DNA of 64,000 bases from a virus. Its lineage: Duplodnaviria; Caudoviricetes. The stretch is taken from IMG/VR virus record IMGVR_UViG_3300011862_000001, positions 160,001-224,000 of that record; one strand, given 5' to 3'. This document shows, piece after piece, positions 29,355-36,057 of the stretch. Position 1 is the first letter of the stretch. The number at the start of each line of letters is the position of its first letter. The notes under the pieces were generated by a model. It searched no databases, was not told the origin of the DNA, and worked only from the letters and a program-made list of their open reading frames with translations. The translations under genes were made by a program, and so were the position numbers.

Positions 29355-29389
29355 GGAAAAAAAAAATAACAGTGGCCCGAAGGCCACTG
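29355..29389 (-). terminator. intrinsic terminator ending the rSAM cluster transcript
   Basis: CAGTGGCC-CGAA-GGCCACTG (TTCG loop on -) preceded by a long A-tract on +. Confidence 0.85.
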
Positions 29390-29393
29390 AGGA

Positions 29394-30050
29394 TTACAAC
29401 AGACCTTCGTCTTTTGCCAACTGCATCACTGCGGTAAAGTCACCTTGTTCGGCGAGCGTACGCAGACGTTGCTTTTTGACGTTGAGCGACATATGCAGGT
29501 CGTTATCACGTTGGATAATTGCCGCATACAGACCTTTCACATCATCAATCGCAAACGGTTCAACCGGGCTGTTGGTGGCATCAATCCAGTACATCGGGTC
29601 AACCCCAGACTGGATATAGCCGGTGAGTGCGGTGCGGGATTTCTCGTCAGCCTGGTAACGGTGACCAGCAAACTCGATATCCTGATAACGCAGCTCTGCA
29701 TAGCGGGTGTTCATCGCTTGCATCACACGGTTAAACTCACGCCACAGGTGACCTAAGGTTGAGGTCAGCCCTTTGCGGATATCATCCAACGGCAGTTCCA
29801 ACACGTCTTTGATAAACGCTTTGGTCTTTTCCATGGTGAACGCCGCTTCGGCATCAGAGAGGTCATGCCCTTTCAGCGCTTTCATCGCCTCTTTATCACT
29901 CATGCCGTTTAGCAGGTGATAATGCAAAAGGGTACAGAACCCTTGGCGCGTGGCGTCTTCAGTTCGCAGAATCCCGCTGTAGTTACCATGGCGGTCAATC
30001 GGGGTGCCAAACTCGAAGTAGCGACGCTTTATTTCGTCATTACTAAGCAT
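29394..30050 (-). CDS. DUF4376-like protein (tail-fibre-associated)
   Basis: C-terminal IEFAGHRYQADEKSRTALTG...YWIDATNS pattern typical of DUF4376-type phage tail-associated proteins. Confidence 0.65.
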   Translation of the reverse strand: MLSNDEIKRRYFEFGTPIDRHGNYSGILRTEDATRQGFCTLLHYHLLNGMSDKEAMKALKGHDLSDAEAAFTMEKTKAFIKDVLELPLDDIRKGLTSTLGHLWREFNRVMQAMNTRYAELRYQDIEFAGHRYQADEKSRTALTGYIQSGVDPMYWIDATNSPVEPFAIDDVKGLYAAIIQRDNDLHMSLNVKKQRLRTLAEQGDFTAVMQLAKDEGLL

Positions 30051-30586
30051 TCAGTTGCTCCTACTAAGCCCAGGTCCATCGCCAAGTCAAAGTCGAACAG
30101 CTGGAAGTCAGTGTAGATATCCTGGCCCCAGACGATGTTCATTTGCTCAGCGTGGTCCTGATTTTGTTCCATATAAGCCCGCGTCAAGTGCATCTCTTCC
30201 CCGAAGGCGTCATACGCTTCGTGGGAACGCACGGCACGTACCCGAAGCTCAGGCCAGCTTAACGCCAGACCAATCAGGTTTTCCGTGTCGAGATTACGCG
30301 TAGAGCGGCGTAAGATTTCGATTTTGTGGCGCGGGAAGTCAGTGACACGCGCTTCAAAGCCCGGGTTACGTTTTTCCACTTCGACCACCGAGTTATGGTG
30401 TTCTTCGACACCGTCCAACGTCAGTATCACGTTTAAGCCAAACCGGATACACAGTTTAACGACGTCGTCGGTAAAGGCATCGGGCGCTACCAGCGCATGG
30501 GCGTTGTACAAGCCGTGCTTGTGCAAAAACGCCGCCACCAGGTGGTGACTACGCTTGGTAAAATTGTGTATCAGAAAGGCTTTCAT
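30029..30586 (-). CDS. hypothetical protein in the rSAM cluster
   Basis: GGAG RBS before ATG 30586; overlaps both neighbours. Confidence 0.75.
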   Translation of the reverse strand: MKAFLIHNFTKRSHHLVAAFLHKHGLYNAHALVAPDAFTDDVVKLCIRFGLNVILTLDGVEEHHNSVVEVEKRNPGFEARVTDFPRHKIEILRRSTRNLDTENLIGLALSWPELRVRAVRSHEAYDAFGEEMHLTRAYMEQNQDHAEQMNIVWGQDIYTDFQLFDFDLAMDLGLVGATECLVMTK

Positions 30587-31889
30587 TAGCAGTGGCTCCA
30601 GTTTGGGTCTTTTTCGCTGCTTCTGCACGTTGACGTACGCAAGACACGCAGTAGCATTGGGTTTTATCGTTTAAGTCGGTATAGCGTACGGTACCAGTTT
30701 TCTGGTAGAAGTATTCCGCGACTAACAGCTTCGCCGTCGTCCATCCACACTGGCGACGTTCAGCGTGGTACTCTTTACGGGCTTCAATCTCACCGTCACC
30801 GTTTTCGTACGAGGCCGCAGCACAGCTGCCGCACGCGTGTTTCATCGGACACCCTAAGCAGGTCTCTGGGTAGTTGGTGTACTGATTTTGAATCTCATTC
30901 AGTAACTTACCACCGTCGATGTTAACGATTTCCCGGCCACGCAGTTCAGCGACCGCCTGACGGGTCGTTACGGTAGACATAAAACGGTTGCAGCCGTAAA
31001 TCTTACGATCAAAGCCCAGGCAGGTCATGTGGGATACTGTACCACAGAAAGGACGCACACGCTCCGGGTTCAAACGGGTGGCTTCGTCGTCGAGTAACTT
31101 CTGACGCCAGTCCGGGTCCCAGGTCGCCATAAAGTCCAGACCATCCGGGAAGATGTGAGTCAGACGGTTACGCGGGTCATGCTGCAAGCCTTTGTCAAAC
31201 CAGTAGTCAATCACATCCATCATCTGGTTGGCAATCGACAACGCCGACTGACGTGGCAGCACGTCTTCGTACGTTACGTTACCCGAGATGGTGCCACCGC
31301 CGGTGACGTCAATCAGGTGCTTCATGCTCTCGGCATAACGCGGCAGGGTTTCACTGGTGAAGGTCGCTTTGATACCAAGCTCCAGGATACCCACCGACTT
31401 CAGGTAGTTGTAGCCGCGCATCGCTTTCTCATACGAGCCTTCACGGCTTACCGTAAAGATACGATAGCGGTCGTGCACTTCTGGCAAGCCATCAATCGAC
31501 ACCCCGATAGACAGCTTGTCGCGCCAGCGTTCGATAATCTGCTGGTTCAGTGGACGGTCAAACAACGTACCGTTAGTGGAGATAGAAAAGATAACGTCGC
31601 GATTATCGCGCTTGGCTAACTCTTCTGCCGCCTCAAAGACACCGAGCAGGATTTTCGGTTGCATCATCGGCTCACCACCGATAATGTCGATAATCACTTC
31701 CACGTTCTCTAAGTGACGGTCACGGTCAAAACACGCATGGATAAAGTCTACCGCGTCATCGACTTTGTTGTTACGCGGGTACTTACGCTCGTAGCAGTAT
31801 TCACAGTCGAGGTTGCACGACAGGTTGGTGACCACCTGATAAGTCTTGGTGATTTTGGGTGTTACCACCGGCATTTTATTATCGCGCAT
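30549..31889 (-). CDS. radical SAM peptide maturase with a SPASM-type auxiliary Fe-S domain
   Basis: CNLDCEYC SAM-cluster motif, IIGGEP, STNG, SIDG; C-terminal CG...GCNRF...CLGC...CGSC...C SPASM-like cysteines; extra CYCVSC near the end. Confidence 0.92.
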   Translation of the reverse strand: MRDNKMPVVTPKITKTYQVVTNLSCNLDCEYCYERKYPRNNKVDDAVDFIHACFDRDRHLENVEVIIDIIGGEPMMQPKILLGVFEAAEELAKRDNRDVIFSISTNGTLFDRPLNQQIIERWRDKLSIGVSIDGLPEVHDRYRIFTVSREGSYEKAMRGYNYLKSVGILELGIKATFTSETLPRYAESMKHLIDVTGGGTISGNVTYEDVLPRQSALSIANQMMDVIDYWFDKGLQHDPRNRLTHIFPDGLDFMATWDPDWRQKLLDDEATRLNPERVRPFCGTVSHMTCLGFDRKIYGCNRFMSTVTTRQAVAELRGREIVNIDGGKLLNEIQNQYTNYPETCLGCPMKHACGSCAAASYENGDGEIEARKEYHAERRQCGWTTAKLLVAEYFYQKTGTVRYTDLNDKTQCYCVSCVRQRAEAAKKTQTGATANESLSDTQFYQA

Positions 31890-32784
31890 TGCTTAGCCCC
31901 ACTTGAATTACACGATTGATGTAACGATACGCGTCCAGACCGATTACTTCAGCCAGACGGTTACAGCCCGAGTCCAACGCATCGACCGCGTTCTCACTTT
32001 GCCCAAAGGTGGCATCCGATTTCAACCACACCAGGTCACTACAGGCATCACAGTGATGAGTAAAGAACTTGTTCACCGACAATGCGATATGATGACGGTT
32101 AATACGGTTCAGGTTCATCAGCTGTTCATGCATACGGTTATAGCCGTACATAAAGTTCATAACGTGGTCAGGCGACAAGGGCTTCGGCATGAAGTTGTCA
32201 AACATCAAACGGAACCCCTGAAGCTTGTAGTGGTACATCGCCTCGTGTAACTTCAGCACGTCAAGGTACCAGTATTTGTTCCCTAACTGCTCACGAGTCA
32301 CCACCGACCACAGCTGCACGTTATCGAGCGCATGCAGCACCTCAAACACTTCAAAACGGCGCTCTTCAGCGACGCGCAGTAACGGACGTTCGGTTTCAGC
32401 ATAGCCATCAAACGACACGAATATCCGATCAAACTGCGCCAGCACCGGAAGCTGCTCCAGCGTCAAACGTAGCGCGTTGGTGTACATCTCATGTTGCAGG
32501 TGCGGGTAGCGTTCTTTCACCTCCGCCAGAAACTCCCGGATCTTCGGGAATGCCAGTAAGGGCTCACCCCCCGTCCAGTTGATTTGACGAATGGTGGGGT
32601 ACTGCTCGAGCAACGCGAACAGTTTTTCTTTTTGAATATCACGACCGCTGTCTTTGATATCCATGTAGCCCGCACCACCACAGAAGCTACAACTTAAGTT
32701 GCATTTCGATGTGGTCACGATCGACAACTCGGCAGGAGTTGCCGTCGGGTCGCGACGAATGGCCGACACAGCTTCTTCATTCAT
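31879..32784 (-). CDS. second radical SAM protein (short, truncated auxiliary domain)
   Basis: CNLSCSFC, WTGGEP, YTN, SFDG; only CDAC...C at the C-terminus. Confidence 0.88.
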   Translation of the reverse strand: MNEEAVSAIRRDPTATPAELSIVTTSKCNLSCSFCGGAGYMDIKDSGRDIQKEKLFALLEQYPTIRQINWTGGEPLLAFPKIREFLAEVKERYPHLQHEMYTNALRLTLEQLPVLAQFDRIFVSFDGYAETERPLLRVAEERRFEVFEVLHALDNVQLWSVVTREQLGNKYWYLDVLKLHEAMYHYKLQGFRLMFDNFMPKPLSPDHVMNFMYGYNRMHEQLMNLNRINRHHIALSVNKFFTHHCDACSDLVWLKSDATFGQSENAVDALDSGCNRLAEVIGLDAYRYINRVIQVGLSNAR

Positions 32785-32805: not shown

Positions 32806-33690
32806 TTAAAAGGTCAGCGCAAACAACGGATCGTCTTTGATGTCCACACCCGTTTCTAAGATGAACGGTGAGTGGTAAGCGTCCAGGATAGTGTTCAAGA
32901 CTGTCTGACGGTCGTTGATACGCTTTAAATCCGCAAGCGTGACGCTACGCGCAAGAATTTGCGAGACAGCCGCTTGTTCTTCTTTACTGAGGGTAACTTT
33001 GTTCAGTAAGAAGCACACCACTTTCGCCAAATCGGCTTCGGTTCCAGGCGCTTCACCAAACTTCCACTGCACCAGGTACTGCATCCACGGTTTGCGGATA
33101 CGCTTGGTGATTTCGTGTTTATCGGTAAGTCCCACAAACTTCTGCTCAGCGTGGTGCCAGACGAATTTGTAGCTGTAGGCCAGCAGGTCGAGCATATGGT
33201 GAATGCCGAGCTCTTCGTAGCCTTCAATCGGGTAATAGGTTTCGAGACCGCTGTAGTCCACGGTGTCTGCCGGTACCTGGGAATACCAGGTCGGGTGTGA
33301 GCTTGGGTAGTCCCAGCTCCATTCACGACGCACCATCGGCTTTAACCCAGATTGGGTAAACGGCGTCAGCAACATTTCCAAGTCGGCGGTTTGGTTTAAC
33401 ATCCCGTCACTCAGGAAATACTTACGGTCGACGAACTTGCCAGTGATTTCCAGTTCGCCGGTGTTCAGATGGATATGTTCTACGGTGTGACCAAGCAGCG
33501 TAAAGCTGTTCAGCACTTCATAGTTCTTCGGGTCCACCAGTTCACGACCACGCACCTTTGGCCATTCGCCAGGCAGCTGCGTAATCAAGCGAATTTGGTC
33601 TAACAGGTGATACTTCACGCTGTCGTAAATGCTGATATGCAGTGGGAAGTTTTGCGTTGTGCGAAACGCCAAGTGCAAATCGTTCTTCAT
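32806..33690 (-). CDS. hypothetical protein in the rSAM cluster
   Basis: 294-aa ORF between the Cys-rich peptides and the rSAM genes; no motif recognised. Confidence 0.85.
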   Translation of the reverse strand: MKNDLHLAFRTTQNFPLHISIYDSVKYHLLDQIRLITQLPGEWPKVRGRELVDPKNYEVLNSFTLLGHTVEHIHLNTGELEITGKFVDRKYFLSDGMLNQTADLEMLLTPFTQSGLKPMVRREWSWDYPSSHPTWYSQVPADTVDYSGLETYYPIEGYEELGIHHMLDLLAYSYKFVWHHAEQKFVGLTDKHEITKRIRKPWMQYLVQWKFGEAPGTEADLAKVVCFLLNKVTLSKEEQAAVSQILARSVTLADLKRINDRQTVLNTILDAYHSPFILETGVDIKDDPLFALTF

Positions 33691-33702: not shown

Positions 33703-33909
33703 TTAGAGGTTGCCTGCGCCATGGCTACAGCCGCCGCTGCATGTCCAGCTACAGGAACCGCCACAGTTATAATGCCATAAGGGCAGTCCGGCGAGGTTGT
33801 TGGTGTAGCTTACCGTTCCGCGTGTTGCAATGTATTCGTTGGCGTCATCGGTCTTGATGTACTTCTCAACCAGGACCATCCGGTTACGAATGTCTTTGAG
33901 TGATACCAC
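33703..33909 (-). CDS. Cys-repeat precursor-like peptide 3 (short core, 4 Cys)
   Basis: Leader VSLKDIRNR...NNLAG followed by NCGGSCSWTCSGGC; GTG start at 33909 aligns with its paralogs. Confidence 0.85.
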   Translation of the reverse strand: MVSLKDIRNRMVLVEKYIKTDDANEYIATRGTVSYTNNLAGLPLWHYNCGGSCSWTCSGGCSHGAGNL

Positions 33910-33957
33910 ATTAACCCCCAAATGTGTAAAAAGGTCGCGTGAGGGAAAGGTCCGCGC

Positions 33958-34353
33958 TTATCGCGACGGGCCGGAACACCCAGAACACCCAGAACACGAT
34001 GAGCTGCACGTCGAGCTACAGCCGGTACACGCACTGCTACAGCCTGCTGAACAACCACCAGAACACCCTCCCGAACAACCGGTACAGGTTCCTGAACAGC
34101 CAGACGTACAACTCGCAGAACAACTCGCCCCACACGTCCCTGAGGCTGAACCTGAGCACCCACCTGAGCATGAAGAACACGTCCAACTGCACGTTCCCCC
34201 ACAGTCGTAGTGCGTCCGGTCAAAACCGGCAAAGCGGTTAGCGTTATTGGTGGCTTTCCCACGGATATAATTCTGCACCCCATTGACATCACGCAATGCG
34301 GTGGCGTCAATCGCATTAATGCGATCGCGAATATTCTTTAATAAAATTGCCAT
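33958..34353 (-). CDS. Cys-repeat precursor-like peptide 2 (20 Cys)
   Basis: GAGG RBS; leader MAILLKNIRDRI...NNANRFAG, then a CxxxC/CxxC Ser/Gly/Thr repeat ending CSGCSGP. Confidence 0.9.
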   Translation of the reverse strand: MAILLKNIRDRINAIDATALRDVNGVQNYIRGKATNNANRFAGFDRTHYDCGGTCSWTCSSCSGGCSGSASGTCGASCSASCTSGCSGTCTGCSGGCSGGCSAGCSSACTGCSSTCSSSCSGCSGCSGPSR

Positions 34354-34364
34354 GCGTGTTTCCT

Positions 34365-34748
34365 CTACGGTCCAGAACAACCGGAACACCCGGTGCAACT
34401 GGATGAGCAGCTACCGGAACACCCGGAACAGCTTTTTGAACACCCGCCGGAGCAACTGCCGGAGCAACCCGAACAGCCGGAGCATCCCGTAGAGCAACCC
34501 CCTGTACAACTTCCCGTACAGGTCGAGGTACACGTCCCCGAACAACTCGTACAGCTTGCAGAACATCCGTTAGAACACGACCAGCTACACGACCCGTTAC
34601 AATCCAGTCCCGGTTGCGACCACCCGGCGAAGCTGTCTTGTGCGTTATTCGCTTGCACAGCCACCTGGTAATCAACCCGAGGGCCAGTAGCGTATGTGTT
34701 TTCCACGTTCTGCAAACGGTCGCGTATGTTTTTAACTGAGATAACCAT
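34365..34748 (-). CDS. Cys-repeat precursor-like peptide 1 (21 Cys)
   Basis: AAGGA RBS; leader MVISVKNIRDRL...NNAQDSFAG, then a CxxxC/CxxC repeat ending CSGCSGP. Confidence 0.9.
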   Translation of the reverse strand: MVISVKNIRDRLQNVENTYATGPRVDYQVAVQANNAQDSFAGWSQPGLDCNGSCSWSCSNGCSASCTSCSGTCTSTCTGSCTGGCSTGCSGCSGCSGSCSGGCSKSCSGCSGSCSSSCTGCSGCSGP

Positions 34749-34762
34749 ACGTTTCCTTTGTT

Positions 34763-34801
34763 AATAAAAAGTGAGGACTCTGCCATATAGACAGGTCCTC
34801 A
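34763..34801 (-). terminator. possible terminator/attenuator between the fibre gene and the peptide genes
   Basis: TGAGGAC...GTCCTCA inverted repeat with an adjacent A-run on + (U-tract on -); large loop. Confidence 0.45.
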
Positions 34802-34811
34802 TGTAATTAGA

Positions 34812-36011
34812 CTAACGAGTACCGGCTTCTGCCTGTACGTCGTCACGCGTGGTCAGGCTGGCGTTGACGTGAACGTTGGCCTGAATCACGCCACCGTACT
34901 GTTTGTGCAGGTATTGAGTGTGTGGGTCAACGGCTGCCGTGTGGTTAGCCAGACTCTGCGACACGCCAGAGATACCGGCGGTGTTGTTAGCGACCTGTTG
35001 ACGCAGTTGCGCCAAGTCGGCTGCCACATCGCGGAATTTCTGCTCAGTCGCAGCACCCTGAGTTTCCAGGTTAGTGACCCGTTGCGCCAAGGCAGCAATT
35101 ACCTGATTCTGGTCGGTGACCATCTTCTGGAGTTGCAGCACCAGGTCGTTAAGGTTCGCTAACTGAAGCGCCATACGCTGGTAGTTCTGCGCAACCGAGT
35201 TCAGCTGGTCATTCCAAGACGCCAGGGCTGAAACGATAGCATCGATACGTCCGTTAATCGCGGTGTCCGCTGCTTTCAAATTCCCGATGTCGGAGAGCAC
35301 TGCATCAATCGCGGTTTGTACCTGAGCAATCAGTGCTCGGATTTCCGTTTCGGTTAAGCCGTTGGCCTGATGAATGTCCAGACTGTGAACGTTACCCTGG
35401 GCGTTGATGTGGGTTTGAAGCGCAGTCATAAACTGCGTTTTCATGTCGGTAATCAACGTGGCGAGCTGTTCAAGCTGAAGCGATTGCCCGGCATTAATCA
35501 CATCACGGATACCGGCAATTTCGGTAATGACGTATTCAAAGCCAAACAAGTCACCCAAGTCTTTAAACATCGGCGCACCCGGGAAGGTGTCCGGCACATT
35601 ACGCAGGTTCTTAAAGTCAATGATTTTGTCTTCAAGATTGGCATCAGCCAAGCCCTGCTTAATCGCGGCAATGTTCGCTGACTGCGGACCCCCAACCACT
35701 TGCGCTACCGCAATCAGGTCGGTTGGTACAGAGGAATCGGTTACCACCACCGCCATACAGATTTCGCGGTTGTTTGCCATCTTCTGATAAACGGGGTGGG
35801 TCAGGATAAGCTCGTAGTGGGTACCGCGCACTAAGTTCGTGTTCGGGGCACTGGCAGGACGCAAGCGGAACGTGTCTGCATAGAACGGCCCTGCGGGAAA
35901 CGCAAAGGCACGGTTAACTTTACCACCGCCCAAAACGATAGGTACCGAGACCGCATTCGAGGTCATCGTCCCTTTCAAATCAAGCGGGTACTGATAAATG
36001 ATATCTGGCAT
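34812..36011 (-). CDS. virion protein / short tail fibre with a long coiled coil
   Basis: N-terminal YPLD...GPFY...LVRGTHYEL domain shared with the three upstream fibre genes; heptad coiled coil; HTAAVDPHTQY fibre motif. Confidence 0.8.
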   Translation of the reverse strand: MPDIIYQYPLDLKGTMTSNAVSVPIVLGGGKVNRAFAFPAGPFYADTFRLRPASAPNTNLVRGTHYELILTHPVYQKMANNREICMAVVVTDSSVPTDLIAVAQVVGGPQSANIAAIKQGLADANLEDKIIDFKNLRNVPDTFPGAPMFKDLGDLFGFEYVITEIAGIRDVINAGQSLQLEQLATLITDMKTQFMTALQTHINAQGNVHSLDIHQANGLTETEIRALIAQVQTAIDAVLSDIGNLKAADTAINGRIDAIVSALASWNDQLNSVAQNYQRMALQLANLNDLVLQLQKMVTDQNQVIAALAQRVTNLETQGAATEQKFRDVAADLAQLRQQVANNTAGISGVSQSLANHTAAVDPHTQYLHKQYGGVIQANVHVNASLTTRDDVQAEAGTR

Positions 36012-36057
36012 AGCCAAACTCCCTTAGCAGGACTTCCTTGTCCCTTATCGTGAATGG

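Follow-up and report, generated by a model that had tools for sequence, protein, structure and literature searches.

A three-paralog cysteine-array cassette with two radical SAM enzymes in the tail-fibre module of SPN3US-like jumbo phages

Introduction

Radical S-adenosylmethionine (rSAM) enzymes that mature peptides are familiar from the biosynthesis of small secreted natural products, and two kinds of described systems stand closest to the locus treated here. One is the CXXX-repeat system of the families TIGR04114-04118, which has been catalogued by comparative genomics and for which we found no experimental characterisation in the full-text literature. The other comprises the thioether-forming rSAM/SPASM maturases PapB, CteB and QhpD of ribosomally synthesised and post-translationally modified peptides (RiPPs). 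We describe a cassette of this general type in a 64,000-nt stretch of phage DNA (the window below; positions 160,001 to 224,000 of the IMG/VR record IMGVR_UViG_3300011862_000001), in which three small paralogous genes, pepA, pepB and pepC, occupy positions 33703-34748 of the minus strand beside the genes for two rSAM enzymes, rSAM1 and rSAM2.

The window comes from a complete jumbo-phage genome of 236.9 kb, and its DNA is about 76% identical to the Erwinia phages Caitlin, ChrisDB and phiEaH2 of the SPN3US-like group, to which belong the genetic model SPN3US itself and phages that have been investigated against Erwinia, Salmonella and Cronobacter. We favour, at a probability of roughly 0.55, the view that the three products are stand-alone tail-fibre tip modules cross-linked by the two rSAM enzymes, and not free peptides. 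The type of system has already been catalogued; what is new is its split, three-paralog, two-enzyme version in a jumbo-phage fibre module, for which no paper was found in the full-text literature. An enzyme-target pair of RiPP type sits here within the host-recognition apparatus of phages.

Three genes for cysteine arrays

The products of pepA, pepB and pepC have in common the junction NN..[FL][AG]G..HY followed by the entry motif C-x-G-[ST]-C-S-W, after which pepA and pepB continue as long arrays with the repeat unit C-[ST]-G-[SGT]; pepC consists of the helix, the junction and the entry motif and has nothing more of the array. Cys makes up about 26% of the array, and the spacer residues are small only. 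When the six frames of the window were searched with the motif C.G[ST]CS[WF].., exactly three occurrences were obtained, all in the 33703-34748 stretch, and the whole genome has only these three copies.

A first-pass annotation, made from the sequence without database searches, had described the three open reading frames (ORFs) as precursors consisting of a leader and a core. Its description was accurate in most respects: the N-terminal strings VISVKNIRDRL, ILLKNIRDRI and VSLKDIRNRM, the NN..[FL]AG segment and the motif [DN]CxG[ST]CSW[ST]CS in all three, the 21, 20 and 4 Cys residues of pepA, pepB and pepC, the CSGCSGP end of both long cores, and the Trp as sole aromatic residue of the two long cores were all found as it had stated; in the window these cores have no His either. 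The alternation of CxxxC and CxxC spacings that it proposed has to be replaced by a plain CXXX repeat, the Cys spacing being 4 in 15 of 20 intervals in pepA and in 14 of 19 in pepB. A few intervals are of 3, and pepB has one interval of 8, at the slot where a Cys has been lost: one of its 21 Cys slots is occupied by Ala, in CSGSASGTC. In the pepA of phage CR5 the spacing is 4 in all 20 intervals.

Structure prediction gave little on the array itself. The AlphaFold2 (AF2) model of pepA, built on a 31-row alignment, has a mean predicted local distance difference test score (pLDDT) of 44 and contains only the helices 5-20 and 23-34, the array having no predicted fold; residues 5-20 are predicted with low confidence as an amphipathic helix. 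A Pfam search with the leaders alone gave no match at E up to 10, and the best score in a search of the ESM Atlas for look-alikes of pepA (0.80) was uninformative.

The ordered triad, long, long and short, recurs in 14 IMG/VR loci, in the named phages Caitlin, phiEaH2, SPN3US, CR5, Kwan and Phobos, and also in the distant contig L027, whose SPASM enzyme is only 51% identical to rSAM1. It is present in every SPN3US-like jumbo phage examined, and its order and type are kept in more than 15 phages. Among 10 orthologues of pepA, all 21 Cys columns are invariant, each using both TGT and TGC, while 42 of the 56 spacer columns are variable, the residues exchanged being Ser, Gly, Thr, Ala and Asn. Paralog A has 21 Cys in every phage examined, L027 included; pepB has 21 slots, one of them lost to Ala in the clade of the window, and 23 in Kwan; pepC keeps a length of 68-72 amino acids (aa) in all relatives, and its number of Cys falls to 2 in the CR5 group and in L027. 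All three peptides are full-length profile matches to phrog_6085 (scores in Table 1). Conservation of the triad, invariance of the Cys columns with synonymous turnover, the ribosome-binding sites (RBSs) and the membership in phrog_6085 mean that the ORFs are not chance frames: they are real genes under purifying selection on every Cys.

In public annotations the peptides are mostly absent or called in another frame, and the annotators of SPN3US, Caitlin and phiEaH2 called other frames or nothing at all, as if these were low-complexity frames lying over genes in another frame. We give this possibility practically no weight, since every Cys codon is conserved in frame with synonymous turnover, RBSs are present, the triad is kept down to 51% enzyme identity, and the module is fused to fibres elsewhere. 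A consequence of the missing or misframed annotation is that existing proteomic data have never been searched for these peptides.

The Trp of the entry motif is near-invariant; pepB has Phe in its place in the SPN3US clade, and Tyr in L027. The first-pass annotation had suggested that the Trp could be a second modification site explaining the presence of two different rSAM enzymes. The aromatic residue does not track the second enzyme: Trp is replaced by Phe or Tyr in homologues, and aromatic residues occur near the start of the array in systems with a single rSAM enzyme, so it does not explain the second one. The residue may set the register for the maturase or serve to anchor the structure.

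Enzymes and their relatives

rSAM1 is, on sequence grounds, the presumed maturase of the Cys arrays. Its top NCBIfam models are TIGR04115 (123.6 bits, cut-off 350) and PapB (122.9 bits, cut-off 340), and TIGR04115 is the best model for 42 of 42 relatives of rSAM1, in all of which C25, C29, C32, C282, C300, C344, C347, C353, C356 and C381 are invariant, that is, the CxxxCxxC motif and seven SPASM Cys residues. The closest solved structure is that of CteB (5wgg); since the alignment starts at CteB residue 104 and query residue 22, past the RiPP recognition element (RRE) of CteB, rSAM1 has no N-terminal RRE and thus no built-in leader-binding domain. PapB-type membership is not borne out, the phage arrays containing neither Asp nor Glu and the PapB score lying far under its cut-off.

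rSAM2 carries a CxxxCxxC motif, a GGEP motif and three C-terminal Cys residues, and C28, C32, C35, G72-P75, C245, C248 and C274 are invariant in 10 orthologues, including those of the distant contigs L024 and L027. The enzyme is probably active, and C245, C248 and C274 suggest one auxiliary cluster, in a twitch-like arrangement, instead of a SPASM domain.

Two further proteins accompany the enzymes. The 294-aa protein belongs to a family, phrog_8030, restricted to these phages, with a homologue also in L027. Its AF2 model (pLDDT 88) has a beta-rich N-domain and a helical C-domain; the fold search gave no Foldseek match in the Protein Data Bank at E up to 0.001, a best VIA-align Z of 5.6 on a helical stretch, and a best TM score of 0.32 in the ESM Atlas. 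The model leaves the first 12 residues disordered, but M1, K2, H6 and A8 are shared by all of 29 homologues, which suggests a docking peptide at the N-terminus; a complex prediction for this protein with residues 1-64 of pepA scored 0.01, which is no evidence either way. The protein of about 190 aa (phrog_7988) is poorly conserved, with 2 invariant residues. It was also considered as a degenerate rSAM enzyme and rejected (hhalign probability for the 199-aa protein, 1.1%).

To survey relatives of rSAM1, we scanned one genome per prokaryotic species with the family alignment and obtained 80 loci, and in 22 of these 80 bacterial loci Cys-repeat ORFs adjoin the enzyme. The relatives include bona fide TIGR04115 enzymes (L032, 384 bits; L034, 363 bits), and the targets link the phage cassette to the same system: with the 18-residue model TIGR04114 (cut-off 20), pepA scores 16.2 bits, and the targets beside bona fide TIGR04115 enzymes score 16.8-19.5 bits or nothing. 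As the score of pepA lies in the range of true TIGR04115 neighbours, we regard the phage cassette as a distant variant of the CXXX-repeat system. pepB reached a target-model score of 15.3 bits against a cut-off of 50.

Cys arrays of other sizes and settings were also met. In an Anaerolineae metagenome-assembled genome (MAG; L040, 3167-3694 and 8597-8870) there are three short paralogous peptides with ..HYG[ST]CGGTCF.. entry motifs resembling the phage HYDCGGTCSW. In Margulisiibacteriota / Termititenax (L028-L031, L033), proteins of 500-670 aa with 79-122 Cys in CXXX register lie directly upstream of rSAM relatives, that of L028 scoring 265 bits with TIGR04115. P0210 and P0211 (metagenomic, 539 and 512 aa) are lipoprotein-like, with a central GHEYVDLGLSVLWA-type domain between PF27846 Cys arrays, and represent a non-phage-looking host of the repeat.

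The abundance of Cys with small spacers only, the fixed number of 21 (7 x 3) and the absence of a predicted autonomous fold could also be taken to indicate thiolate proteins that bind metal or iron-sulfur clusters, similar to metallothionein or to the needle of T4 gp37, with the rSAM enzymes acting elsewhere or using the arrays as cluster scaffolds. This explanation seems to us distinctly improbable: Cys-repeat ORFs accompany this rSAM clade repeatedly and in different phyla, which points to a relation of enzyme and substrate, and Pfam and NCBIfam searches found no metal-handling genes among the operon genes.

Link to tail fibres

A search for longer proteins containing the pepA module yielded P0207, P0208 and P0212. 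P0207 (370 aa) is a tail-collar fibre (phrog_910, 74 bits; phrog_972, 46 bits) that ends in a phrog_6085 module (62 bits); this C-terminal module carries ..YYRCASGCSWTC.. and ..YLNGQPGSYYRCASGCSWTC.., and has exactly 21 Cys within a 75-residue span. In P0212 (251 aa), weak tail-fibre matches (phrog_5073) are joined to phrog_6085 positions 5-126, which takes in nearly all of what had been called the leader. P0208 (226 aa, 18 Cys) is encoded in a siphophage contig, where a gpJ-like tail protein immediately precedes it and a radical SAM gene follows; the short rSAM enzyme beside it resembles rSAM2 slightly more than rSAM1, and a SPASM gene, if there is one, would lie past the end of the contig. 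The helix of the phage N-terminal region and the N..[FL].G....HY junction align with the shaft end of all three proteins, and the pepB junction ..FAGFDRTHYDCGGTCSWTC matches P0208 and P0207. Fusion of the module to fibres is in this way directly observed.

The position of the cassette points in the same direction. In all SPN3US-like phages it is fixed in the fibre module, between virion fibre genes and the DUF4376 and endolysin genes, and in L027 it also lies in the fibre module, beside Peptidase_S74 fibres. The 104-kb phage contig L024 (4020-7919) has a reduced version, likewise in the fibre module: one 110-aa protein with an 8-Cys C-terminal array and a 218-aa protein accompany two rSAM genes, and a DUF4376 gene follows the rSAM pair; the 218-aa protein shows weak similarity to the 294-aa family (probability 28%). 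Judged by these gene orders, the rSAM pair with DUF4376 is the conserved core and the number of Cys is specific to the lineage. For SPN3US, gp167-gp171 are virion tail proteins, gp167 being found in virions and absent from tailless particles, and gp161-gp166, among which are the enzymes and the accessory proteins such as gp165, were not detected in virions (PMC5105663, Table S4).

The tail-module context recurs in a second, unrelated phage group. Six Clostridia MAG contigs (L032, L034, L035, L036, L038, L041) encode bona fide or near-threshold TIGR04115 maturases, each with a CXXX protein of 200-250 aa and 23-31 Cys, and the prophage order is baseplate wedge, baseplate protein, tail fibre, CXXX protein, maturase, tail-collar fibre, endolysin. 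In these Clostridia genomes, what had been catalogued as a "peptide" system is for the most part one of phage tail modules. A 178-aa protein of the Clostridia prophage cassette was examined as a possible member of the 294-aa family and rejected, as it shows no similarity.

These alignments bear on how the N-terminal region should be understood. The first-pass annotation had taken it for an enzyme-recognition helix or a short coiled coil, and had named a lack of conservation among homologues as one of the observations that would speak against it. The region is kept in homologues, and the coiled coil gains some support from the alignment to the C-terminal ends of fibres. To speak of a removable precursor leader is probably mistaken, since most of this "leader" has its homologue in the end of a fibre shaft; the N-terminal 50 residues appear better described as a retained docking or oligomerisation segment. 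Such a retained segment fits the paralog-specific middle parts, the lack of a peptidase or exporter in the operon, and the universal retention of pepC despite almost no array. The suggestion in the same annotation that the three products could be alternative tips gains support, as the whole module aligns to the C-terminal end of P0207, P0212 and P0208.

If the cassette were instead a classical phage RiPP, the N-terminal 50 residues would be a true leader, a host protease would cleave it, and the cross-linked cores would be freed at lysis as bioactive peptides or as a signal. The leader-plus-core layout with an amphipathic helix would suit this, as would the conserved [AGS]-G in the junction, which resembles a double-glycine site, the place of rSAM1 in the thioether-maturase neighbourhood with PapB, CteB and QhpD, and the relative L040 with its short peptides and ABC exporter. 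We nevertheless think it unlikely. Pfam, NCBIfam and PHROG searches gave no family match to a leader peptidase or an exporter among the eight operon genes; helix and junction are homologous to the fibre shaft end; the three "leaders" keep middle segments that differ by paralog and are conserved within each type, which is unexpected for a throw-away leader; pepC, with 2-4 Cys and almost no core, is always retained; and the phage lineage is strictly lytic, with the cassette fixed inside the fibre module.

The size of the arrays is also constrained. From the first to the last Cys, the arrays of A and B span 74-79 residues and are mostly within 1-2 residues of each other (74/75, 77/78, 79/79), Kwan being the exception (21 vs 23 Cys, spans of 79 vs 88). 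With 21 Cys in all pepA, 21 slots in pepB, 21 Cys in P0207 and these spans, the constant number and the matched lengths point to a constraint on length or stoichiometry, be it a gauge, seven turns of three, or the match to a partner. In an obligate A:B:C heterotrimer, an option raised by the first-pass annotation, the N-terminal helices would form one three-stranded coiled coil with pepC as a short cap and the arrays of A and B side by side; the N-terminal helix is common to all three, they are always found together in the same order, and the spans of A and B agree in most phages. We hold such a heterotrimer to be very improbable, in view of the fused homologues P0207, P0208 and P0212, which are single genes and would form homo-oligomers, and of Kwan, which breaks the match of A and B. 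Similar spans may reflect common descent only, and nothing favours a heterotrimer over homotrimers.

Proposed function

In the reading that we favour, pepA, pepB and pepC would be late-gene, stand-alone fibre-end modules, each with an amphipathic, probably coiled-coil helix, the N..[FL].G....HY junction, a C-x-G-x-C-S-aromatic entry and, where present, a CXXX array. The unfolded array would be the substrate of the adjacent rSAM1, the distant TIGR04115 relative, which would cross-link many or all Cys within the molecule, most likely through thioether bonds to carbons of neighbouring Ser, Thr or Gly; we infer this chemistry from the thioether-forming relatives PapB, CteB and QhpD. The product would be a stiff, protease-resistant ladder of about 21 rungs. 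rSAM2, the 294-aa protein and the protein of about 190 aa would be accessory factors, and more speculatively might perform a second chemistry or hold the substrate, the latter because neither radical SAM enzyme has an RRE of its own. The N-terminal part would stay on, oligomerise and attach the product, as a putative component of the particle, to the baseplate fibres; a speculative candidate for the docking partner is the tip-less 401-aa fibre.

Several points weigh against this reading. Tail-fibre neighbourhoods are frequent sites for cargo genes. The peptides show no similarity to the upstream 401-aa fibre in a profile comparison (probability 2%), and BLASTP of P0207 against the same fibre gave no match. 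rSAM1 stays far under the TIGR04115 cut-off, at 123.6 against 350 bits, no characterisation of the chemistry of TIGR04115 systems was found in the literature, and neither the 294-aa nor the 199-aa protein had an NCBIfam match at E up to 0.1, a TIGR04116-type helper included. The peptides of L040 are encoded next to an rSAM relative and an ABC transporter, as in a classical RiPP cluster, so the target family is not always structural. Finally, the mass spectrometry of SPN3US virions (PMC5105663) was searched with an annotation that excludes the three peptide ORFs; the peptides are undetectable in published virion proteomics because reference annotations miss or misframe them.

A more specific proposal, which we put forward tentatively as possible rather than probable, is that the fibres with which SPN3US-like phages contact their hosts contain, as a structural component, a ladder of exactly 21 Cys rungs that radical SAM enzymes have stapled, delivered as three small proteins, two long ladders and a cap, with the number of rungs serving as a gauge of length or stoichiometry that is shared with the fused tips of unrelated phages. 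If so, it would be the first case in which radical-SAM (RiPP-type) chemistry matures a component of the virion. Arrays that are cross-linked fibre tips would mean a new post-translational chemistry of the virion and a new way to stabilise or diversify receptor-binding structures, and would give the CXXX-repeat family its first biological role.

Organisation of the locus

Features of the locus are collected in Table 1. On the minus strand the order is the 1690-aa fibre, a homologue of SPN3US gp168 that heads the series, the 401-aa fibre, pepA, pepB, pepC, the 294-aa protein, rSAM2, rSAM1, the protein of about 190 aa, the DUF4376 protein, a hairpin and the endolysin. Caitlin, L009, SPN3US and CR5 all retain the stem-loop that separates the 401-aa fibre gene from pepA, with compensatory changes in the stem and an invariant loop, T.TATGG; it could act as a terminator, mark a site of processing or belong to a phage late promoter. 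In RNA-library wastewater runs with SPN3US-like DNA, long contigs span the whole 7.9-kb locus evenly, which says nothing on expression.

Table 1. Coordinates of the features of the cassette and its surroundings, and of misframed ORFs in reference annotations. Positions are those of the window unless a locus is named.
Feature	Position	Strand	Support
401-aa coiled-coil fibre protein, SPN3US gp167 homologue, directly upstream of pepA	34812..36017	-	phrog_2163, 328 bits
Stem-loop between 401-aa fibre gene and pepA	34772..34801	-	minimum free energy -18.8 kcal/mol, z -2.9; T-rich run after
pepA, 127 aa, N-terminal helix and 78-aa CXXX array, 21 Cys, end CSGCSGP	34365..34748	-	ORF list; phrog_6085, 151 bits; RBS AAGGAA upstream
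pepB, 131 aa from ATG with GAGGA RBS, 20 Cys in 21 slots	33958..34353	-	ORF list; phrog_6085, 165 bits
pepC, 68 aa from GTG (or 72 aa from TTG at 33921), 4 Cys	33703..33909	-	ORF list; phrog_6085, 91 bits
294-aa accessory protein, SPN3US gp165 homologue	32806..33690	-	phrog_8030
rSAM2, 301-aa radical SAM enzyme without SPASM domain	31879..32784	-	Pfam PF04055, 53.7 bits
rSAM1, 446-aa radical SAM/SPASM enzyme, SPN3US gp163 homologue	30549..31889	-	NCBIfam TIGR04115, 123.6 bits
185-199-aa accessory protein, SPN3US gp162 homologue, gene overlaps rSAM1 end	30029..30628	-	phrog_7988
218-aa DUF4376 protein, last gene of unit	29394..30050	-	Pfam PF14301, 41 bits
Strong terminator-like hairpin after DUF4376 gene	29370..29389	- (gene unit)	hairpin prediction
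SPN3US gp166 / ACQ60_gp100, wrong-frame or opposite-strand ORF over real peptide genes	L003 6977-7312		
Caitlin gp175, gp176, wrong-frame or opposite-strand ORFs over pepA/pepB	L001 6561-6674 and 6855-7073		
phiEaH2 gp087, gp088, wrong-frame or opposite-strand ORFs over pepA/pepB	L002 6434-6679 and 6931-7065		

Comparison with known systems

With the CXXX-repeat system the phage cassette shares a Cys at every fourth residue in a long array that follows a non-repeat N-terminal part, the neighbourhood of an rSAM/SPASM enzyme, and, for the bona fide members, the location in phage tail modules. It differs in having three small paralogous targets with fixed numbers of 21, 20 and 4 Cys, and in adding a second, non-SPASM rSAM enzyme and the proteins of 294 and about 190 aa, which are of no known family. 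The maturases of PapB/PapA (freyrasin), CteB-SCIFF and QhpD likewise are rSAM/SPASM enzymes acting repeatedly on Cys residues spaced by three residues. The phage cores differ from PapA in having Ser, Thr and Gly only, in place of the Asp, Glu or Asn acceptor pattern (CX3D); CteB has an N-terminal RRE, which the phage enzyme lacks; and the phage product, unlike those of thioether RiPP maturases, is probably not a free peptide.

The fibres of T4, with gp37, its helpers gp38 and gp57 and its metal-lined needle, and those with Peptidase_S74 chaperones resemble the phage cassette in another way, namely in the position within a fibre module and in having dedicated non-virion helper genes adjacent; a coiled-coil helix and an N..L.G....[YF] junction of the kind usual in fibre shafts likewise come before a specialised distal domain. 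In the phages described here, by contrast, the helpers are radical SAM enzymes, so that covalent chemistry and not chaperoning is implied, and the tip is a separate small protein and not the end of the fibre chain.

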